IMG/VR virus record: IMGVR_UViG_3300009678_000061
Location: 5,364 to 69,363 of that record
Strand: one strand, 5' to 3'
Source of the DNA: a virus
Lineage: Duplodnaviria > Caudoviricetes
Length of the DNA stretch: 64,000 nucleotides
The notes below the pieces were generated by a model. That model was not told the DNA's origin. It saw only the letters and a program-made list of their open reading frames with translations, and did no database searches. Shown piece after piece: positions 7,599-18,888 of the stretch. A program made the translations under genes and the position numbers. Within the stretch, counting starts at the first letter, position 1. Each line of letters starts with the position of its first letter.

Positions 7599-10205
7599 CT
7601 ACTCCTCAATAATCGTCTTGATCCGGCCCTCGCCATCCCGCTCCACGGTCCTGACAATGCGGCCCTTGGGTTCAGCCTTTGGTTGTTCAATCTGGACCTT
7701 GATCGCATCCTTGGGAATCGTGACCTGCGCGGCAGCGGCTTCGACCTCGACGCGAATCGCATCCTTGGGGAATTCCACCGTGACCGGAGCGTTGACCACC
7801 GGCGGCTTTTGATCTGCCAATGCCGACGCCAGTTCCTTGCTCGCGCTGGTGATTGCTTCCGCTACACCTGTTAGGGGTTGCATGCTTTCCTCGATGGTCT
7901 TGACGATGGCTGCCGTGTTGATGGCATTCGTGCCGGCTGCGTACACGACCGTATCGTGCAGCTCCTCCAGGAACTCCGCAGGCCGAAGGGTTTCCATCAG
8001 CCGGCCGGCCGCATCGGTGTTCTCATGCAGCTCGCGAAGAATCGCACGGGCTTCGTCGGTCGTGCGGGCGGATTCGAGCGCGGCGGAGACGGCGGCGGCG
8101 CGGGGGGTTGTATGAAGATCGATTTCTAGCAGGCTCACGTCGCCCTCAAACGGCTCTGCATCCTCCACCGATTCGATTACGTCAGCTTCCGTCGAAAGGA
8201 ACTGCGCGAGCTTTTTGGCGGTCACCTTCAGCGGTTTATGGCCTTTCTTCTGGACCGTATAGAACGTGGCCCCGGCTGAAAGGTCAACGTGAGGCTTGCC
8301 GATCTTGTAGCCACGCTCGCCCAGCAGGTCTGTCACCTGATCGATATTGAGCTTTGCCTGTTTGCTGACGAAGCGGTATTTTTTGCCTTGATAAACGCCG
8401 GTCGAACCCCTCTCGGTTCCTGCGTCGGAACGGGAATGTGCATTGACCTGGCTCTTTCCAGTTGGACACGGCCCCGGCTTCCCACCTTCACCACCGCACT
8501 CCAGAAGCGCCTCCACCTTCCCCAGCCGCTCCGCAACCGCTTCCATTGCCCGCAATGCCGCGCCATCGCTCTGAGGCGCAGGCTGCGCCGGGACGTTGGT
8601 GACTTGCGAGATATTCGCCGGCTGACCTTGCGCGGCCCCCAGCGGCGGCTCAGGCTTATCGCCATCCTTTTGGATGTTCTCAAGCTCAGCGTCGAAGTCC
8701 AACCCCGCTTCCGTGGCCGCCGTGCGCTTGCTCTTGATGCCCAAGCCAACCTCAATTGCCGACGTGCGGGCCTGCTCTTCCTTGTTGCGTGTGGCGACCT
8801 CAGGCGGCGTCACGATCACATCCACCAGCGCTTCGATCTGCTCCCAAGGCATGTCGAACCGCGCGAAGTAGCCGGAGTCGAAGGCGATGCGGATTGCTTT
8901 CCAGCACAGCGAGGAGAAACCGGGCTTCAACTCGCGCTGGTCAGACTCACGGCCCTTGACGAAGGGCGACTCGGCAACCAATGCGGACGCCAAGTTATTG
9001 TTGCTGTAGTCGCCGGAAATCATCCCTTCGGCCATTTGCCAGACGCTGCCGAGATACCTCAGCAGCGCTTGAATCACATTGATGAACGCGGGCGCGCGCT
9101 CGCTGCCCATCGGGCCAGCCAGGTACTCCTGCCCCTGGTTGATATCCAAGATCGTTCCCGGCGCGAAGTTCTGGATGTATCGCGTGCGGCTGCCGCCTTG
9201 GGGGAGATTCTGCGTCCGCGTCTCGTAAGCGTTGGTGGCCCGTAGCCCGCTGATTTGCGCAGCGGTCGCGCCTGTGGCGTGCTGCCGAATGAACGCGATA
9301 GCCGCTTGCACTGCGGTCCCGCGGCCTGTGTTGCGCAGGACTTTCTCGGCATCTTGCAGCCATGCGATTACGGGATAGAACTCGCTATATCCCCGCTTCA
9401 CACCGTAAGGCGCGTTGGCTTTGAAATGCTCCATACGCGCGGCTGGCACGTAATCCCAGTCGGCATAGGCAGCCGGGTCTGGTGCAACGTGATAACCCAA
9501 CGTGTCTCCAGGGCGGTCCTTTCTGGTGTGCACGCCCATCGCCCAGCAAGATACAAACTCCGTGTCGATGTGCAGATGTGTTTCCAGGTCATTGCTGAAG
9601 CCCTGTGGATCGCGAACGTGGTCTGGCTCGCGAATCAAGATTCTCGTCTGCCAGCCTTCCGGTTCAAGTTGCACAAAGCACTCGCCATCCGTTCGCCGGC
9701 GATCGTGGATTTCGTTTTCCAGCAAACACCCTGAGTCGCCAAACAGGGCATCGATCACGTTTTGGACGGCCCCGACTAATCCCTTAGGAGGCTCGGCATC
9801 ATTTGCCGGTTGGACCTTATAGGTGAATCCGCCGCTGATCGTATAGTTGCGCAGGTTCTTGAGGATGTTGATGCCGGCCGGGAACATCGTGGTCAGAATA
9901 CGGGCCGATCCTCGGATGAAAGCCAAGTCTTGCTCCGTCTCAAACACCGGCCGATTCTTGCCGTCTTGTCGATCGTCGGGCCGCGTCATTGGTACAGGCT
10001 GCTGTCCGTAGCTCGTTCCCCAGCCCGGCGTGTCGTGCATGAACTCGCGCGGATCGATCAGCTCGCACGCCTCCATAACGGGGACTGGCAAGTCCGCCAT
10101 CCGCTGGGCTTCCGCGAGGTACGATTCGAGCTGCATTGTTTCCAATTGCAACCGTGCGGATTCGTGGCGGGTGCGGAGGTCTTCGATGGGGAGAGTGTCG
10201 ATCAT
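7599..10205 (-). CDS. Portal protein (lambda-like family) with a long C-terminal extension
   Basis: Follows TerL. PYGVKRGYSEF and ISGDYSNNNLASAL motifs. Start moved to MIDTLP (ATGA overlap). Confidence 0.85.
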   Translation of the reverse strand: MIDTLPIEDLRTRHESARLQLETMQLESYLAEAQRMADLPVPVMEACELIDPREFMHDTPGWGTSYGQQPVPMTRPDDRQDGKNRPVFETEQDLAFIRGSARILTTMFPAGINILKNLRNYTISGGFTYKVQPANDAEPPKGLVGAVQNVIDALFGDSGCLLENEIHDRRRTDGECFVQLEPEGWQTRILIREPDHVRDPQGFSNDLETHLHIDTEFVSCWAMGVHTRKDRPGDTLGYHVAPDPAAYADWDYVPAARMEHFKANAPYGVKRGYSEFYPVIAWLQDAEKVLRNTGRGTAVQAAIAFIRQHATGATAAQISGLRATNAYETRTQNLPQGGSRTRYIQNFAPGTILDINQGQEYLAGPMGSERAPAFINVIQALLRYLGSVWQMAEGMISGDYSNNNLASALVAESPFVKGRESDQRELKPGFSSLCWKAIRIAFDSGYFARFDMPWEQIEALVDVIVTPPEVATRNKEEQARTSAIEVGLGIKSKRTAATEAGLDFDAELENIQKDGDKPEPPLGAAQGQPANISQVTNVPAQPAPQSDGAALRAMEAVAERLGKVEALLECGGEGGKPGPCPTGKSQVNAHSRSDAGTERGSTGVYQGKKYRFVSKQAKLNIDQVTDLLGERGYKIGKPHVDLSAGATFYTVQKKGHKPLKVTAKKLAQFLSTEADVIESVEDAEPFEGDVSLLEIDLHTTPRAAAVSAALESARTTDEARAILRELHENTDAAGRLMETLRPAEFLEELHDTVVYAAGTNAINTAAIVKTIEESMQPLTGVAEAITSASKELASALADQKPPVVNAPVTVEFPKDAIRVEVEAAAAQVTIPKDAIKVQIEQPKAEPKGRIVRTVERDGEGRIKTIIEE

Positions 10206-10813
10206 TTTGCCCCCAGTGGGATAAACCCTGTTCCGCTGCACAACGCGCACGGCTCGTTTGAATTCAGCCCGATGTAGCGCTTGGTGCCCTTGCAGTCTGG
10301 GCACTCGCGCACAGGTTCAAGCGGCATGTCCAGAACCGTTTTCAATCGAACTTGTGCTATGCACTCTTGATAGCGCTTCTCGTCTGCTTCAAACGCACCG
10401 CGCTCTTTAGGTCCGCCGCGCTCCGACAGTTTCAGCATCCCGTCGATGTTTGTGTTGAGCGTCAGTGGCCAGTTCTCGACGTAGACAATTTCATTGCTGG
10501 CCGTTTCTTGCGCCGGTGTTCCGTATTCTGCTGCTGTTCCGTATGCGCTCCCCTCCGCAATTGGCGGAAGGCGGGCGGCCATCATTCTGCCAAGGCGACA
10601 TTCACCCATCGCACGGGCAAAACGGATAACCGCGAAGTGCAACGCGCTCAGGTTGTCATAGTCTGCCGGGTTGATGATGACCCCCCTGGTTTCCGTCACG
10701 CCGTGGCATGAGCAGGATTTGACGACGCAATACTCTTGCGCGGTGGCAGCCTTGTTGAATGAGAACGCGGCTTGTTCTGCTAGGTTCCGAATTTGCTCCA
10801 TCGTCAGTTTCAT
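10202..10813 (-). CDS. Hypothetical protein with C-terminal DnaJ-type Zn finger
   Basis: CPDCKGT...CALCSGTG; ATGA overlaps at both ends. Confidence 0.6.
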   Translation of the reverse strand: MKLTMEQIRNLAEQAAFSFNKAATAQEYCVVKSCSCHGVTETRGVIINPADYDNLSALHFAVIRFARAMGECRLGRMMAARLPPIAEGSAYGTAAEYGTPAQETASNEIVYVENWPLTLNTNIDGMLKLSERGGPKERGAFEADEKRYQECIAQVRLKTVLDMPLEPVRECPDCKGTKRYIGLNSNEPCALCSGTGFIPLGAK

Positions 10814-12354
10814 GCCACAGCCCTTTCGCCTTGAGGTTGTTCGTGTATCCCCGCCGCCAACTCGTCCATAAACCGCATTGCACTCGGCAGGCAAATCGCC
10901 AGCGCCGTTGCCCTGTCCGCGTGGCCCGCCTCATCCCGTACCGCCGTCAGCTTCAGACCATAAGGCTTCTCGACGATCGACAGCTTGGCCAAGTCCGCCA
11001 ATAACAGCGGCTCGCGGTACAGCTCCAGGGTTTGATTGCGCGTGCAGCTCATCAGCGTACGCGCCATTTCGTCGCGGTTCTTCGGACTGCTGAACTCAAA
11101 CGACAACAGCGGGAAGCCCACTTCGCGCAATCGCTGGACCATGTAAACCGCTTCGTGCTTGTCGTAGATCATCCCCGCCAGATTGTACGTGTCGTGCGCC
11201 CTGCGGATGGCATTCTCCACCGCAGCCAGGTCCACTTCGCCCCGCGGTCCCGATGGCTTCCAGGATTCGCATAGCACGAGCCTGAGCTTTCTTTCCTGCC
11301 AATCGATCGACAGCACCACGAAGCCCGCATGGTCGTGCTTGATGCCCAGGTCCAGACCCGCCACGTATTCCAGACCCGGCGCCCGGAACCGAACCGGACC
11401 AGCCAGCTTACAGCAGGCTTCGATATCGGCCGGGTCCAACGCGTCGCCGTCGCCGGTCTGCCAGAGATTTCCCCAGAGGCGATTGAAAGCGGCCGGCGGC
11501 AGGCTCTTGCGCTGAAAGTCCAATCGCTCTTGAGTAATCCAGGTTGCCACCGGCCCCTCAGTGCGCGAGAAGTAACAGCCCTCCGACTCGCGGAAGATCT
11601 CCCGGATCCGCCATTGCCAGGATTTCCCCTTGCCCAAGCCGGCATTGGTAATCACGACCAGCATGCAATTGGCCCGCTTGGCGGATCCCGCCAGGAGCGA
11701 TTCCCACAACCCGCTTTTGACGTGGTGCGTCAACTCATCCACGACCACGAAATCCGGCAGCTTGCCGTGGCTCGTCGCCTCGTCGGCGGAGATAATCTCC
11801 AACTCGCTGCCGGTTGTTTTGTTCACGACCATGTAACGCTGAATCTCCAACCGCTCCGCAAGCCAGGTGTTTCTCCGATACAGCCCGTCAATCGCATCCC
11901 GCAGCAGCTTGGCCTGATCCTTTGACGCTGCGCCCACCACGCCCACGATCTTGCGTTGTGCGGCGAACAGCGCCCATGAAACCATTACCGCCTGATCCGT
12001 TGTCTTACTGTGCCCTTTGCCTTTCTCGATCCAAGCCCGCATGACTGAGCCCGCCCCTTGTCCGCTCACCATTTGCTTCCATCCGGGGTCCAGCGCTTCA
12101 AAGTCCTTGCGCTGCCACGGCTCGATTACGCTTTCCAAACTGCGGTCCTGTCCGTCAACGTCAATCACCAGCTTGCGCCGGAACTCCGCCGGGTCGTCAA
12201 TGAGCCTTTCCGTTTCCGTTTTGTGACCCATTAGCTGACGGAGGATGGCTTTCTGCTGGTCGGGAGTCCGCTTCGATAACCACACCTCCAACTCCGAGTC
12301 GGTCAGCAATAGCAGAAAGTCGGCTTCCTCGTTGGTCAGTAACGGCGTGCTCAT
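10810..12354 (-). CDS. Terminase large subunit
   Basis: Walker A-like KGKGHSKT, Walker B FVVVDE, nuclease GLDLG..HD and D..TALA. Start could instead be 12231. Confidence 0.92.
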   Translation of the reverse strand: MSTPLLTNEEADFLLLLTDSELEVWLSKRTPDQQKAILRQLMGHKTETERLIDDPAEFRRKLVIDVDGQDRSLESVIEPWQRKDFEALDPGWKQMVSGQGAGSVMRAWIEKGKGHSKTTDQAVMVSWALFAAQRKIVGVVGAASKDQAKLLRDAIDGLYRRNTWLAERLEIQRYMVVNKTTGSELEIISADEATSHGKLPDFVVVDELTHHVKSGLWESLLAGSAKRANCMLVVITNAGLGKGKSWQWRIREIFRESEGCYFSRTEGPVATWITQERLDFQRKSLPPAAFNRLWGNLWQTGDGDALDPADIEACCKLAGPVRFRAPGLEYVAGLDLGIKHDHAGFVVLSIDWQERKLRLVLCESWKPSGPRGEVDLAAVENAIRRAHDTYNLAGMIYDKHEAVYMVQRLREVGFPLLSFEFSSPKNRDEMARTLMSCTRNQTLELYREPLLLADLAKLSIVEKPYGLKLTAVRDEAGHADRATALAICLPSAMRFMDELAAGIHEQPQGERAVA

Positions 12355-12688
12355 GGTGGATCGTCTCGCCTTCCGCGTGATGCTCGTCCGATTGATTTTG
12401 GCTTTCCATCGCGACGGCATTCCTTACGGCAATCTGCCTGACGCGGGCATCGTTGTGACCCACATCACGGCCAACTGCATAGGCCGCACGCTGGCGAACC
12501 GATAATGCTTCCTCTGGGATTTCCTCTAGTTCGGCGAGTGTGGCATCCGTTGGCCAGCGCTGGCCGCCAAGCCAACCGCGCTTGATTGCCGTCTGAAGCA
12601 TCCGCTGATCTTGCAATACAGTCCGACCACTCTCCGTGCGTTCGGTCTTTCCCCCCGACCCCCCGGCTGTTTCAGCTTGGTCTACCAT
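12197..12688 (-). CDS. Putative terminase small subunit
   Basis: Immediately upstream of and overlapping TerL; size and helical composition. Confidence 0.55.
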   Translation of the reverse strand: MVDQAETAGGSGGKTERTESGRTVLQDQRMLQTAIKRGWLGGQRWPTDATLAELEEIPEEALSVRQRAAYAVGRDVGHNDARVRQIAVRNAVAMESQNQSDEHHAEGETIHHEHAVTDQRGSRLSAIADRLGVGGVVIEADSRPAESHPPSANGSQNGNGKAH

Positions 12689-12703
12689 AATTTTACCGCC
12701 CTC

Positions 12704-12964
12704 CTACAGTACCCCCGCCAACAACAACTCGTCCTCTTCCTCGATCTGCCGCCGCAAGGCGACCAGCTCCGGCGACTCTTGCGGCTCTTCTTCCGTCCAT
12801 TCCTTCCGCTTTCGCTTCGCTCGCACTGGCGGCCGAACATAACTCCCATCGCCCGTGAACAGCACCCCGCCGATTAGGCCGCCGCCACCGCCGGAGAAAA
12901 CAACCCCACCAGGCCAATACTCAGGCCCGAAGTAACCGCCGCCGTAATAGCCCCTGGGGAACAT
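12704..12964 (-). CDS. Small Gly/aromatic-rich virion-region protein (MFPRGYYGGGYFGPEYWP...)
   Basis: TGATG overlap with 12964..14361; acidic C-terminus. Confidence 0.6.
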   Translation of the reverse strand: MFPRGYYGGGYFGPEYWPGGVVFSGGGGGLIGGVLFTGDGSYVRPPVRAKRKRKEWTEEEPQESPELVALRRQIEEEDELLLAGVL

Positions 12965-14361
12965 CAGGTTGCATCCGTGGTGATTGCGCTGCGGTTGCCG
13001 TCTGTATCCACGTTGGCCGTGAGGCGGTTCTTGGTGTCGGCCTTGTCGCGGAAATGGACCGGCCCATCCGGGAATCCGTCGCTCTTGCCCATTAGTGCCG
13101 CGCGTGCCAACCGCAAGAACTCCTGGAGTGTCTCGGCGCCTTCGTAGGCCGCCGCCAGCATGGCCGCCGTGATTTGCGAAGTCGTGGGAATACTCAGCGC
13201 CGTGATTGCCGCAAGCGTGGCATCGTCCGCCGTGCCAAGTGCCGTAGCCAGTTCGGCATTCGTTGGCACGTCGGCAACCGCCGCCTGCGTTGTTCCGTGC
13301 TGCGTATCCTGCGCCGTGTCGAGGGCGTCCAGGGTTTGGATCGTGCCGGCTGCCGTGTTGATGCCGCCCGTTACATTGCCCACGAGGTTGCCCGTGATGT
13401 TCGCCGTTAGCGTCTCTCCTGCGGTCCCGTCGAGCATGCTCTCCCAACGGGCCGCAACAAAAAAGTCGTTGCTGACGCCTTCGACGTTGGCCCCGATGAA
13501 TGCCGATCCTCCAAAGGTATACGACGCCACTTGGGTTCCGCGAATCATCGCCAGGTCAACCCGACCATTCGGCAGGATTTCGTAGGTGACGCCCGCAGCA
13601 ACCGCCGCTGGCAGGTCAGGCGTCCAGCTAATCTGATCCGTGCCGGAGTTGAATCCATTGATGAGCCGCGTCAACCCGACGTTCGAGCCGCTGGTGAATT
13701 TGATCTGGCTTCCGACCCAGTAATCGTCTGGCGTTTCGGTTCGCTCCGTGTCAATCAGGAAATTCACGTCGCCACTGTCCGCTGTTCCGCTTGCGCAGGC
13801 ATCGGTGGATTGCATCTTGCCGTTGAGCAGCGCGGCCGGCAGGCGGCTTTGAATATCCTGCGTGTCCGTCTCGACATCCGTAGCCGTCTTGACCGTCGTG
13901 CCAGATAGATTGAGCGTGGTGGTGGGCGAGCCGACGTTGGCCCAATCGACGCCCGCTTCTCCGCCGCTGGAAACATCTAGTTTGCGGCCGGCAGTGGTGG
14001 GACGGAGCAAGTAGCCCAGCGTCAGAAAGTAAGTGAACTTGACCGTTTGGCCGTCAACCGTGACCGCGTTTAAGTGGACCCAATACTGCGAGCCGTCCGC
14101 CCAGAAGCCAGAATCGCTGTTATCGCTGGTGTCAATTGAGAAACCGTGCAAGCCCGTGGAGCCGTCGAAGTCGATGCCATCGGTGTCCAGGAGAGCATAG
14201 CCGTTGTCGCTGGCCCGTTGCGTAATGCTGCCGTTTTTGTACACCTCCAGATCCGTGACGGCCAAGTCCGTGATCGTCACGGATGCACCGGCAGAATTGT
14301 AGGTGTCGAACGGGAAATAGATCGTATCTCCCGAATTGAAAACTGGCGGCATTACAATCAT
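12964..14361 (-). CDS. Virion structural protein (fibre or baseplate-like)
   Basis: Asp/Thr/Gly-rich beta protein in the structural cluster. Confidence 0.6.
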   Translation of the reverse strand: MIVMPPVFNSGDTIYFPFDTYNSAGASVTITDLAVTDLEVYKNGSITQRASDNGYALLDTDGIDFDGSTGLHGFSIDTSDNSDSGFWADGSQYWVHLNAVTVDGQTVKFTYFLTLGYLLRPTTAGRKLDVSSGGEAGVDWANVGSPTTTLNLSGTTVKTATDVETDTQDIQSRLPAALLNGKMQSTDACASGTADSGDVNFLIDTERTETPDDYWVGSQIKFTSGSNVGLTRLINGFNSGTDQISWTPDLPAAVAAGVTYEILPNGRVDLAMIRGTQVASYTFGGSAFIGANVEGVSNDFFVAARWESMLDGTAGETLTANITGNLVGNVTGGINTAAGTIQTLDALDTAQDTQHGTTQAAVADVPTNAELATALGTADDATLAAITALSIPTTSQITAAMLAAAYEGAETLQEFLRLARAALMGKSDGFPDGPVHFRDKADTKNRLTANVDTDGNRSAITTDAT

Positions 14362-17444: not shown

Positions 17445-17627
17445 TTAGCGTGGCGGACTTGGACCGCGGAATCCGTTGATCGATCCGATGATGCACACGA
17501 CCCCGGCAACCAGTGCGGAGAAGCCCATCACGGGCTTACCCCAAACCACGTCGATGTTCGTCACGGAAAACAGGCCGAACAGGAACAGGAAAATCCCGAT
17601 CAGCAGCCATACCCAATTGGTGAACAT
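17445..17627 (-). CDS. Small two-TM membrane protein (holin candidate)
   Basis: Two hydrophobic segments in 60 aa; RBS GGGAG. Confidence 0.55.
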   Translation of the reverse strand: MFTNWVWLLIGIFLFLFGLFSVTNIDVVWGKPVMGFSALVAGVVCIIGSINGFRGPSPPR

Positions 17628-17649
17628 GATTTAGTCTCCCTTGTGCATA

Positions 17650-18092
17650 ATGTGGCCTTCCCTGCTGATTAAGGTTTTGCCCGCGTCTGTTGTCCGTGGC
17701 TGCTAGGCTGTGCGTAGCGTTGACTGGCTCTTAGTGACCGCCGGTTTTTATCGAAACATCAGTTGTGGACCCGGACGCAGACCACGTTGCCGCATCTACT
17801 AGCGACGCGTTGCCGGGGCAAACCCATTGCTGGGAACCACACGTTTCGAGCCTGTCATTCATCCTTCCGCCTCGCCCCGCACTGCTGCGGGACACTTTTC
17901 GGATTACGCTAACTGGCGAGTTTCTAAGCCAGTCCCTTTTCTATCCCGGCTTCTTTTGGTTCAGGGGAACAAGCCGGCCCAAAAACCTGCTGGACAACAG
18001 AACGGGTAAAACCTATACTTCGTTTAGGAATCCTGTTCTGCGTCCCTCGCACGGACACTCGATAGCACCCGCTTCACGGCGGGTGTTGTCGT
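17650..18092 (-). ncRNA. Candidate large structured non-coding RNA or leader (family not identified)
   Basis: Intergenic stretch of ~470 nt with nested helices and several GNRA loops; see findings. Confidence 0.6.
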
Positions 18093-18094
18093 TT

Positions 18095-18514
18095 CTACTC
18101 CCGATGATTTGATGCCACCTCCAGCACCGGCAAGCACACCTTGCACGGCACTTTCCCATCCGCGGCCGCTTCCTCATGGCTCGCGTACTCCCGGCGATGC
18201 GCCACGCTCGCGGCATAGCGGCAGTCGGCACGGTGATAAACGCCCTTGATCGATGAGGCGACGTAGGGATGATCGATAGTCGATGATGCACGGTGGATGG
18301 TCAACAGTCGATGATTGATGGTCGATGGTGCCGCTGCCCCCACACTCACCGCGCGCACGCACCGGCTCACGAAATAGATCGCGGCCCACACGACGAACGG
18401 CGACAGCACGATCAGCACGGCAATCGGAATCCAGTTGCGGACGGGCTTGATGACGACGTGGTGTGCCATTGCGGTGCGCTTCGGGTGCGGGGTGATCGGG
18501 GTTACGGGACTCAT
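18095..18514 (-). CDS. Membrane-anchored protein with Ada-like metal-binding domain
   Basis: TM segment, then YVASS..GVYHRADC...EEA..DG..PCKVC. Confidence 0.7.
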   Translation of the reverse strand: MSPVTPITPHPKRTAMAHHVVIKPVRNWIPIAVLIVLSPFVVWAAIYFVSRCVRAVSVGAAAPSTINHRLLTIHRASSTIDHPYVASSIKGVYHRADCRYAASVAHRREYASHEEAAADGKVPCKVCLPVLEVASNHRE

Positions 18515-18888
18515 TTCGTTGTTCGCTCGGGACTGTGGTTCCACTGCCCGATATTGAGATTACAACGCTGGCAAAGTAGGCCGCGGACGACCCCTGTAAT
18601 GGCATCGTGGTCGACGGCAAGTCTCTTGGCTCCTCCGCGAACATGGAGAGCCGTTTCTGTCTGCCCGCAAATTGCGCAAACGCCACCCTGCTTTCGATGC
18701 ATGGCCTCATACTGCTCTAGAGTGATGCCGTACTTCCTCTTGAGTAAGCCATCGCGCCTCTTTCGTCCATTCAGGCGGTTGTATTCGCACGATCTGGCGA
18801 TGACCTCCAGCCGATACGCTGGATCGGTGTGGTATCGCTCCGTTCTTCGATTGCGCCGCCTAGCCTCAACTTCTGGGTTGTAAGTCAT
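18511..18888 (-). CDS. Endonuclease VII-like protein, possibly degenerate
   Basis: KYGITLEQY...CAIC...VDHD..TG.VRGLLC..CN; DHDH is DHDA here and the C-terminus is short. Confidence 0.75.
   Translation of the reverse strand: MTYNPEVEARRRNRRTERYHTDPAYRLEVIARSCEYNRLNGRKRRDGLLKRKYGITLEQYEAMHRKQGGVCAICGQTETALHVRGGAKRLAVDHDAITGVVRGLLCQRCNLNIGQWNHSPERTTK

Follow-up and report, generated by a model that had tools for sequence, protein, structure and literature searches.

Complex-folded RNA classes that are both widespread and unexplained are few, and each earlier one has led to new biochemistry. The HK022 put RNAs consist of two simple stem-loops of ~70 nt, and ROOL and GOLLD reach roughly 580-800 nt. 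Both ROOL (RF03087) and GOLLD (RF01998) are large, ornate stand-alone RNA genes of phages and prophages, with complex conserved folds and no protein partner, and they sometimes adjoin tRNA genes (PMC12286853). For the phage DNA analysed here (the window, 64,000 nt; bases 5364-69363 of a 69,363-bp IMG/VR virus record with direct terminal repeats), an earlier note had proposed a large, multi-junction structured ncRNA of no known family in a minus-strand gap of ~470 nt, a proposal borne out by homologues, by covariation and by the lack of a match in Rfam 15. All coordinates and complementary segments quoted in that note are present.

The minus strand carries nearly all genes of this phage, and the gap measures 467 nt (17628-18094), bounded by the stop of a 149-aa gene (18095) and the start of a 60-aa gene (17627). 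On its 5' side lie the 149-aa membrane protein, then endonuclease VII and an RLIG1-like RNA ligase (two genes upstream); on its 3' side follow the 60-aa membrane protein, a 132-aa membrane protein, a Gp10-like fibre, a sulfotransferase, further virion genes and the terminase. Same-strand genes run long from 17627 downwards with the RNA preceding them, and the RNA of this phage happens to lie where the DNA-metabolism genes give way to those for membrane proteins, virion and packaging. The 149-aa protein (18095-18544) has a transmembrane segment and, at its C-terminus, a Cys/His motif with a weak likeness to the Ada zinc domain (E = 0.006), a motif that L210, a close relative on a metagenome contig, retains. 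Because the terminase relatives come almost entirely from Planctomycetota genomes, the host of this phage is probably a planctomycete.

No coding signal was detected in any minus-strand frame of the gap, the codon-usage score being negative in all of them, although the flanking genes do give such a signal, and the small ORFs of the gap have no Pfam match. Among the homologues, ORFs overlapping the RNA differ in strand and frame from locus to locus, indels are not multiples of three, and no conserved ORF spans the interval. From the negative codon usage and the absence of a Pfam match and of a conserved ORF, a protein-coding or decayed gene was ruled out. Folding energy was one of the checks proposed at the outset: z-scores against dinucleotide shuffles are -2.47 for the minus and -3.54 for the plus strand, the gap ranks only 21st (minus) and 16th (plus) among 318 native windows of the same phage when energy is regressed on GC, and folding energy by itself is unconvincing for a structured RNA here. 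The gap contains no iterons and shares no repeat with the remainder of the window, which rules out a DGR template, a retron or another repeat-linked element. As the phage has a csrA gene, a CsrA sponge was also considered and rejected: the ~9 GGA motifs counted by eye in the gap are about the number expected from composition, and none lies in a conserved loop.

Infernal searches of Rfam 15 at gathering threshold yielded only a tRNA, both for the whole window and for fourteen homologous loci. At E up to 10 the gap gave chance-level matches only, and at E up to 1 nothing was found at the RNA element of ten further loci. The RNA thus appears to belong to an uncatalogued family, absent from Rfam 15 with its models of GOLLD, ROOL, OLE, HEARO, raiA, riboswitches and ribozymes. 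A blastn comparison of the window and two other members with GenBank phages returned no match, the program being close to its limit with a 58-nt core, and a literature search by sequence word and topic led to no description of the family.

Homologues were sought by several routes. Contigs of six relatives, fetched by synteny via the 132-aa gene, lack the gap and gave no nhmmer match. The synteny route via close terminase relatives was unproductive as well: L008-L012, compared with window 7599-14361, have an 82-87% identical terminase, and the terminase and portal genes are all that is common to both. Judged from this, the genomes of these relatives and of this phage are strongly mosaic. A terminase profile brought together 105 related loci from genomes and IMG/VR, four of which were matched by nhmmer with the gap as query (Planctomycetota MAG contigs, Lacipirellula limnantheis I41 and one IMG/VR contig), with E = 3e-10 and 2e-5 for the prophage loci. 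The matches consist of identity blocks interrupted by stems of unlike sequence. With four carriers in 116 terminase-related loci, the RNA is patchy among related phages.

A degenerate pattern made from one conserved block served to collect the remaining members, matching 64 IMG/VR contigs and, among the matches listed, more than 120 metagenome contigs. Because the pattern fixes some core positions, their invariance is partly by construction, whereas the covarying positions were free. The family comprises at least 192 instances with 170 distinct cores in loci of 30-72% GC; at least 190 members are uncultivated phage and prophage sequences, and the source metagenomes, judged from contig names only, are soil, peat, freshwater and sludge. 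With a covariance model of the core, a single copy was detected in this phage and two copies in L. limnantheis, and 3 of 151 sampled Planctomycetota genomes gave hits; the two copies and the low count fit carriage by prophages. L. limnantheis I41 is a cultured planctomycete (NZ_CP036339.1), and its two copies (L185 near 2,003,900 and L187 near 1,727,900) presumably lie in two prophages. By these counts, the family is widespread in environmental phages and sporadic in Planctomycetota prophages.

The conserved core of ~140 nt (17857-17721, minus strand, as all RNA features below) contains P1, P2, P3, an invariant arm and a 3' half. Its covariation indicates that P0, P1 and then P2 are nested round a three-way junction, with the variable P3 and the invariant core as arms. 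The 5' strand of P1 (17849..17857) pairs with 17729-17721 round an A-A mismatch, is 88-91% paired and shows four to six pair types per position; it is followed by J1/2 (17843..17848), a conserved GAAA-type junction. In P2 the 5' strand (17835..17839) pairs with 17746-17742, with 94% pairing and changes on both sides at five of five pairs. P3 (17823..17834), a hairpin with a GCAA tetraloop, is 91% paired and varies in length between members; in about a fifth of the cores it is missing, and the GAAA junction then lies directly 5' of P4. A U-rich junction lies between P3 and P4. The invariant core itself (17770..17817) is made up of P4, a CA bulge, the ACG/CGT helix, the X-Y pair, P5 with its loop, and a 10-nt linker. 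Both P4 (17817-17813 with 17774-17770) and the ACG/CGT helix (17810-08 with 17777-75) are paired in 100% of cells; P5 (17806-02 with 17793-89) is 96.9% paired with three covarying pairs, and it carries a fixed 8-nt loop, UAGUNGAU (17801-17794), that is invariant across the family. The 3' half (17715..17769) runs through UCCACAA, an A-rich run, the 3' strand of P2 (17746-42), J2/1 (17741-30) ending in UAAG, the 3' strand of P1 (17729-21) and that of P0 (17720-15).

A plain MAFFT alignment comprising 59 cores has 98.8% of its cells paired. Its covariation score of 0.312 was attained by none of 500 shuffles (0.082), and slid partners did not exceed 0.076. The middle pair of P4 is without any mismatch in this alignment, and among the distinct cores it occurs in all four Watson-Crick forms (G-C 83, A-U 66, U-A 9, C-G 7). 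The X-Y pair (17807/17778) covaries between purine-purine and Watson-Crick combinations; in 168 distinct cores we counted G.A 105, A.G 29, C-G 21 and G-C 7, other combinations being nearly absent. This suggests a purine-purine pair that is exchangeable for a Watson-Crick pair, an unusual isosteric covariation and perhaps the sign of a tertiary contact or active site. As the length of P3 is variable, MAFFT misaligned P1-P3, and a covariance model built from the sequence of this phage alone and a hand-drawn structure was therefore used to align 68 members. On this alignment, which is structure-fitted and leans towards the model, P1, P2 and P3 reach 88-94% pairing with four to six pair types at each position, and P1-P5 together are 95.7% paired; the score is 0.388, with 0.093 for shuffles and a maximum of 0.055 for slid partners. 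An alignment-free measure was obtained by comparing each 5' flank with its own 3' flank and then with the 3' flanks of other members: the longest Watson-Crick helix averages 7.2 bp for cognate and 5.6 bp for non-cognate flanks (p = 4e-16). RNAduplex energies had been tried for this comparison and were swamped by GC content, so that helix length was used instead.

Around the core, the long form of the RNA would extend over ~313 nt (17688..18000) with predicted ends, and conservation of the family begins near 18002-17992. Its enclosing and 5' helices were examined on a structure-blind MAFFT alignment of 16 long-form members. P0 (5' strand 17906..17911, pairing with 17720-17715) is 87.5% paired, and all six of its pairs change on both sides. 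RNAalifold predicted an H-type pseudoknot (17962..17989) in which CAGG (17989-17986) pairs with CCTG (17965-17962) inside the Pa loop; 85.9% of its cells are paired and three of four pairs change on both sides. The Pa hairpin (17946..17977; 17977-17971 with 17952-17946), 67-74% paired, has a large conserved loop ending in CCAAAAG on stems that are unlike between relatives, and the Pb hairpin (17912..17933; 17933-17928 with 17917-17912) has a conserved 10-nt A-rich loop; both are less cleanly supported than P0 and the pseudoknot. This 5' domain, that is, the H-type pseudoknot together with the hairpin of the fixed A-rich loop, occurs in about 30 members, this phage among them. Between P0 and P1 lies an insert whose length and sequence are not constant among relatives, and folds predict a lineage-specific hairpin in it (17876..17891). 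In the MFE fold of this phage, a 9-bp helix (18000-17992 with 17696-17688) closes the whole RNA; by eye, no clear equivalent was seen in three more distant relatives.

L210 differs from this phage at five positions over 18000-17680, including a compensatory C-G to G-C swap in Pb, and diverges from it both beyond ~17680 and in the segment 5' of the RNA. Its kinship is apparent from a 136-aa gene that, by eye, closely matches the 132-aa gene here. Between the two phages (window 17445-17680 and L210:1110-1300), the 60-aa membrane-protein gene and ~50 nt before it have been swapped for unrelated sequence, and the next gene, the 132- and 136-aa one, is nearly identical by eye across that swap.

Taken together, pairs changed on both sides were found in every helix from P0 to P5 and in the pseudoknot, with far lower values for shuffled and slid controls. 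That a conserved fold exists is practically certain. The functional strand is identified as the minus strand of the window because G-U pairs exceed A-C pairs in the helices (9 against 2), because of the G.A/A.G covariation and because of the GNRA loops. Much of what the earlier note had read by eye thus found support in many homologues and strong compensatory changes: in the deeply nested domain TAGCGT/ACGCTA (17911-06 with 17720-15) is P0, TGAC-GGCT/AGCC-GTCA is P1, and CCCGG/CCGGG with ACG/CGT are P4 and the helix next to it, and on the 5' side CCGGCTT/AAGCCGG and ACTGGC/GCCAGT are Pa and Pb, which covary in the homologues. Other pairings did not outlast the comparison. The partners GAAAC/GTTTC and GTGG/CCAC are non-complementary in the more distant aligned relatives and kept by the window and the near-identical L210 only; the same applies to the proposed GGTTTTT/AAAAACC pseudoknot, instead of which the different one described above exists. 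Of the claimed enrichment of GNRA loops, the P3 loop stands and the others do not.

A segment of ~95 nt on the 5' side (18001..18094), which had been read as a first domain of the RNA, lies outside the conserved RNA and diverges fast. Conservation was not found beyond L210, to which the identity is roughly 70% by eye; the proposed closure GACAAC/GTTGTC has gained a mismatch in L210, and GTTGTCC is better paired downstream at 17694-17688. The first hairpin of the segment holds its position in L210 with a wholly different stem, followed by a T-run on the plus strand. On that strand, a sigma-70-type promoter (TGGACA, 17 nt, TATACT at 17991-18019; 10 of 12 matches) is kept in L210 in its hexamers and spacing with a varying spacer sequence, and a 14-bp hairpin with T-run at 18060-18101 is a candidate terminator whose stem is kept in L210 through compensatory changes; the part between promoter and terminator diverges. 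The predicted 78-nt plus-strand transcript (18024-18101) has a fold z of -5.2. The stretch 17991-18101 (plus) is thus a candidate locus of a separate ~75-nt small RNA that has a promoter and a terminator of its own and is antisense to the 149-aa gene at its 3' end. In view of the hairpin with T-run, the promoter kept in both phages and the z-score, a small antisense RNA unit is a likelier reading of the segment than a domain of the large RNA.

As to its nature, we think it rather probable that 18000-17688 on the minus strand represents a stand-alone structured ncRNA of an uncatalogued phage-borne family, acting on something common to many hosts. It would be transcribed as its own stable RNA, with presumed ends, promoter and stability, and its invariant junction and loop nucleotides would act on a target common to very different hosts. 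Candidate targets are a conserved host factor or a small molecule; alternatively, the RNA might catalyse a reaction on itself. Control of one particular downstream gene seems not to be its role. A minus-strand promoter was not found in the window.

The competing explanation that fares best is a cis-acting leader of the late operon, in which the RNA would be the 5' UTR of the membrane, virion and packaging genes and work by processive antitermination (of the HK022 put RNA or EAR element type), as a riboswitch or as a thermosensor. The earlier note had held this in reserve, and the gene order of this phage agrees with it, as the RNA precedes a long same-strand run, with the endonuclease VII and RNA-ligase genes upstream and the membrane proteins, Gp10-like fibre and terminase downstream. 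Elsewhere the neighbours assigned by Pfam and PHROGs are varied DNA methyltransferases, helicases, recombinases, RusA, RecE/Erf, HNH and terminase genes, typical of the border of replication and packaging modules, as is the site of the RNA in this phage. The P1 helix closing round a conserved junction is aptamer-like. At L137, the RNA is preceded by a sigma-70-type promoter at a distance of 140 nt and followed, ahead of a gene, by a terminator at 90 nt, a layout compatible with a discrete gene as well as with an attenuated leader.

The family as a whole does not follow this pattern. In L120:156-3812 the RNA lies in a gap of 850 nt that separates the verified portal and head-scaffold genes, and it runs on the strand opposite to both, and in L138 it converges on a methyltransferase gene; these are the two loci in which protein homology backs the opposite placement. 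By crude ORF calls (at least 150 aa), which err in GC-rich DNA, the downstream ORF is on the same strand in 32 of 46 loci and on the opposite strand in 14, so that a cis role is conceivable for most members, this phage included. On an AT-richer phage contig (L162:8953-10290), four tRNA genes (three Ile, one His) form a cluster on the same strand as the RNA, which lies within it. No downstream gene recurs, the commonest family being present at no more than 6 of 170 loci, and the largest protein cluster among all neighbours is an upstream helicase at 9 of 170. The distance from the RNA to the next start codon varies widely, and terminator-like sites 3' of the RNA (7 of 57 loci) are not enriched over the background of 0.09 per 300 nt, a comparison in which the hosts are mostly GC-rich or unknown and terminators may be non-canonical. 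Since the RNA opposes its flanking genes in some phages and sits in a tRNA cluster in one, a stand-alone gene is likelier than a leader, which we rate as possible but doubtful.

Individual neighbours were also considered as partners. In the planctomycete prophages L040:5822-6106 and L043:6099-6410, and in no other locus scanned, the gene directly upstream encodes an HTH_17 protein (excisionase or AlpA-like); the RNA-ligase gene was likewise dropped, as no ligase lies near the RNA in other loci. For a guide-RNA partner, a TnpB neighbour was found in one locus only and a reverse-transcriptase gene in none, and the gap has no repeat in the window.

By analogy with the scattered occurrence of twister, pistol and hatchet, the RNA might be a new self-cleaving ribozyme or another catalytic RNA. 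Its invariant nucleotides cluster in the junctions and loops of a compact fold, and it occurs patchily, in either orientation and with no fixed neighbours; against this, a cleavage site cannot be inferred, the RNA is present in a single copy per genome, and the core with its enclosing helices exceeds most small ribozymes in size, so that we regard this explanation as unlikely. A DNA-level element, such as a replication origin or a packaging or protein-binding site whose inverted repeats mimic RNA helices, would suit the replication, recombination and packaging genes that often adjoin the RNA, but is highly improbable given the absence of iterons or repeats, the G-U pairing on one strand only, the covarying G.A/A.G pair, and the long-range nested helices and pseudoknot, which duplex DNA sites do not show.

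The family could tentatively be seen as a new functional RNA class whose members either are ribozymes or bind, as receptors, some universal metabolite or host factor. It would then be a self-sufficient module in phages infecting very different hosts, and the invariance of junction nucleotides across 30-72% GC would be explained without a protein partner. With ~140 nt the core is compact enough for in-line probing, cleavage assays, crystallography and cryo-EM, the natural variants (at least 170 distinct ones) can guide mutagenesis, and experiments could start from the cultured L. limnantheis I41 with its two copies. For phage annotation, the long "empty" gap that precedes the late genes would be a gene in its own right.

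Compared with described RNAs, P5 may resemble the boxB hairpin of lambdoid nut sites: if its loop is read as an A-U pair closing GUNGA with the variable base flipped out, it would presumably look like a GNRA-like pentaloop on a 5-bp stem. Unlike boxB, P5 is embedded in a 140-nt multi-helix fold, with no boxA and no N-like protein gene nearby. With twister-sister, pistol and hatchet the RNA shares a patchy, context-independent distribution and invariant nucleotides in junctions; however, it has no match to their Rfam models. As with the HK022 put RNA and the lambda PR'-tR' late leader, the RNA of this phage heads late genes and follows just after a Holliday-junction-resolvase-type gene, but it differs from put in being antisense to its neighbours in some phages and in that terminators are not enriched downstream. 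The nearest known kind is the orphan ornate phage RNAs ROOL and GOLLD, which are likewise phage-borne, complex in fold and devoid of a protein partner, and whose tRNA neighbours find a counterpart in L162; the new RNA has no sequence or model similarity to either and is much smaller, with a core of ~140 nt and a long form of ~310 nt.
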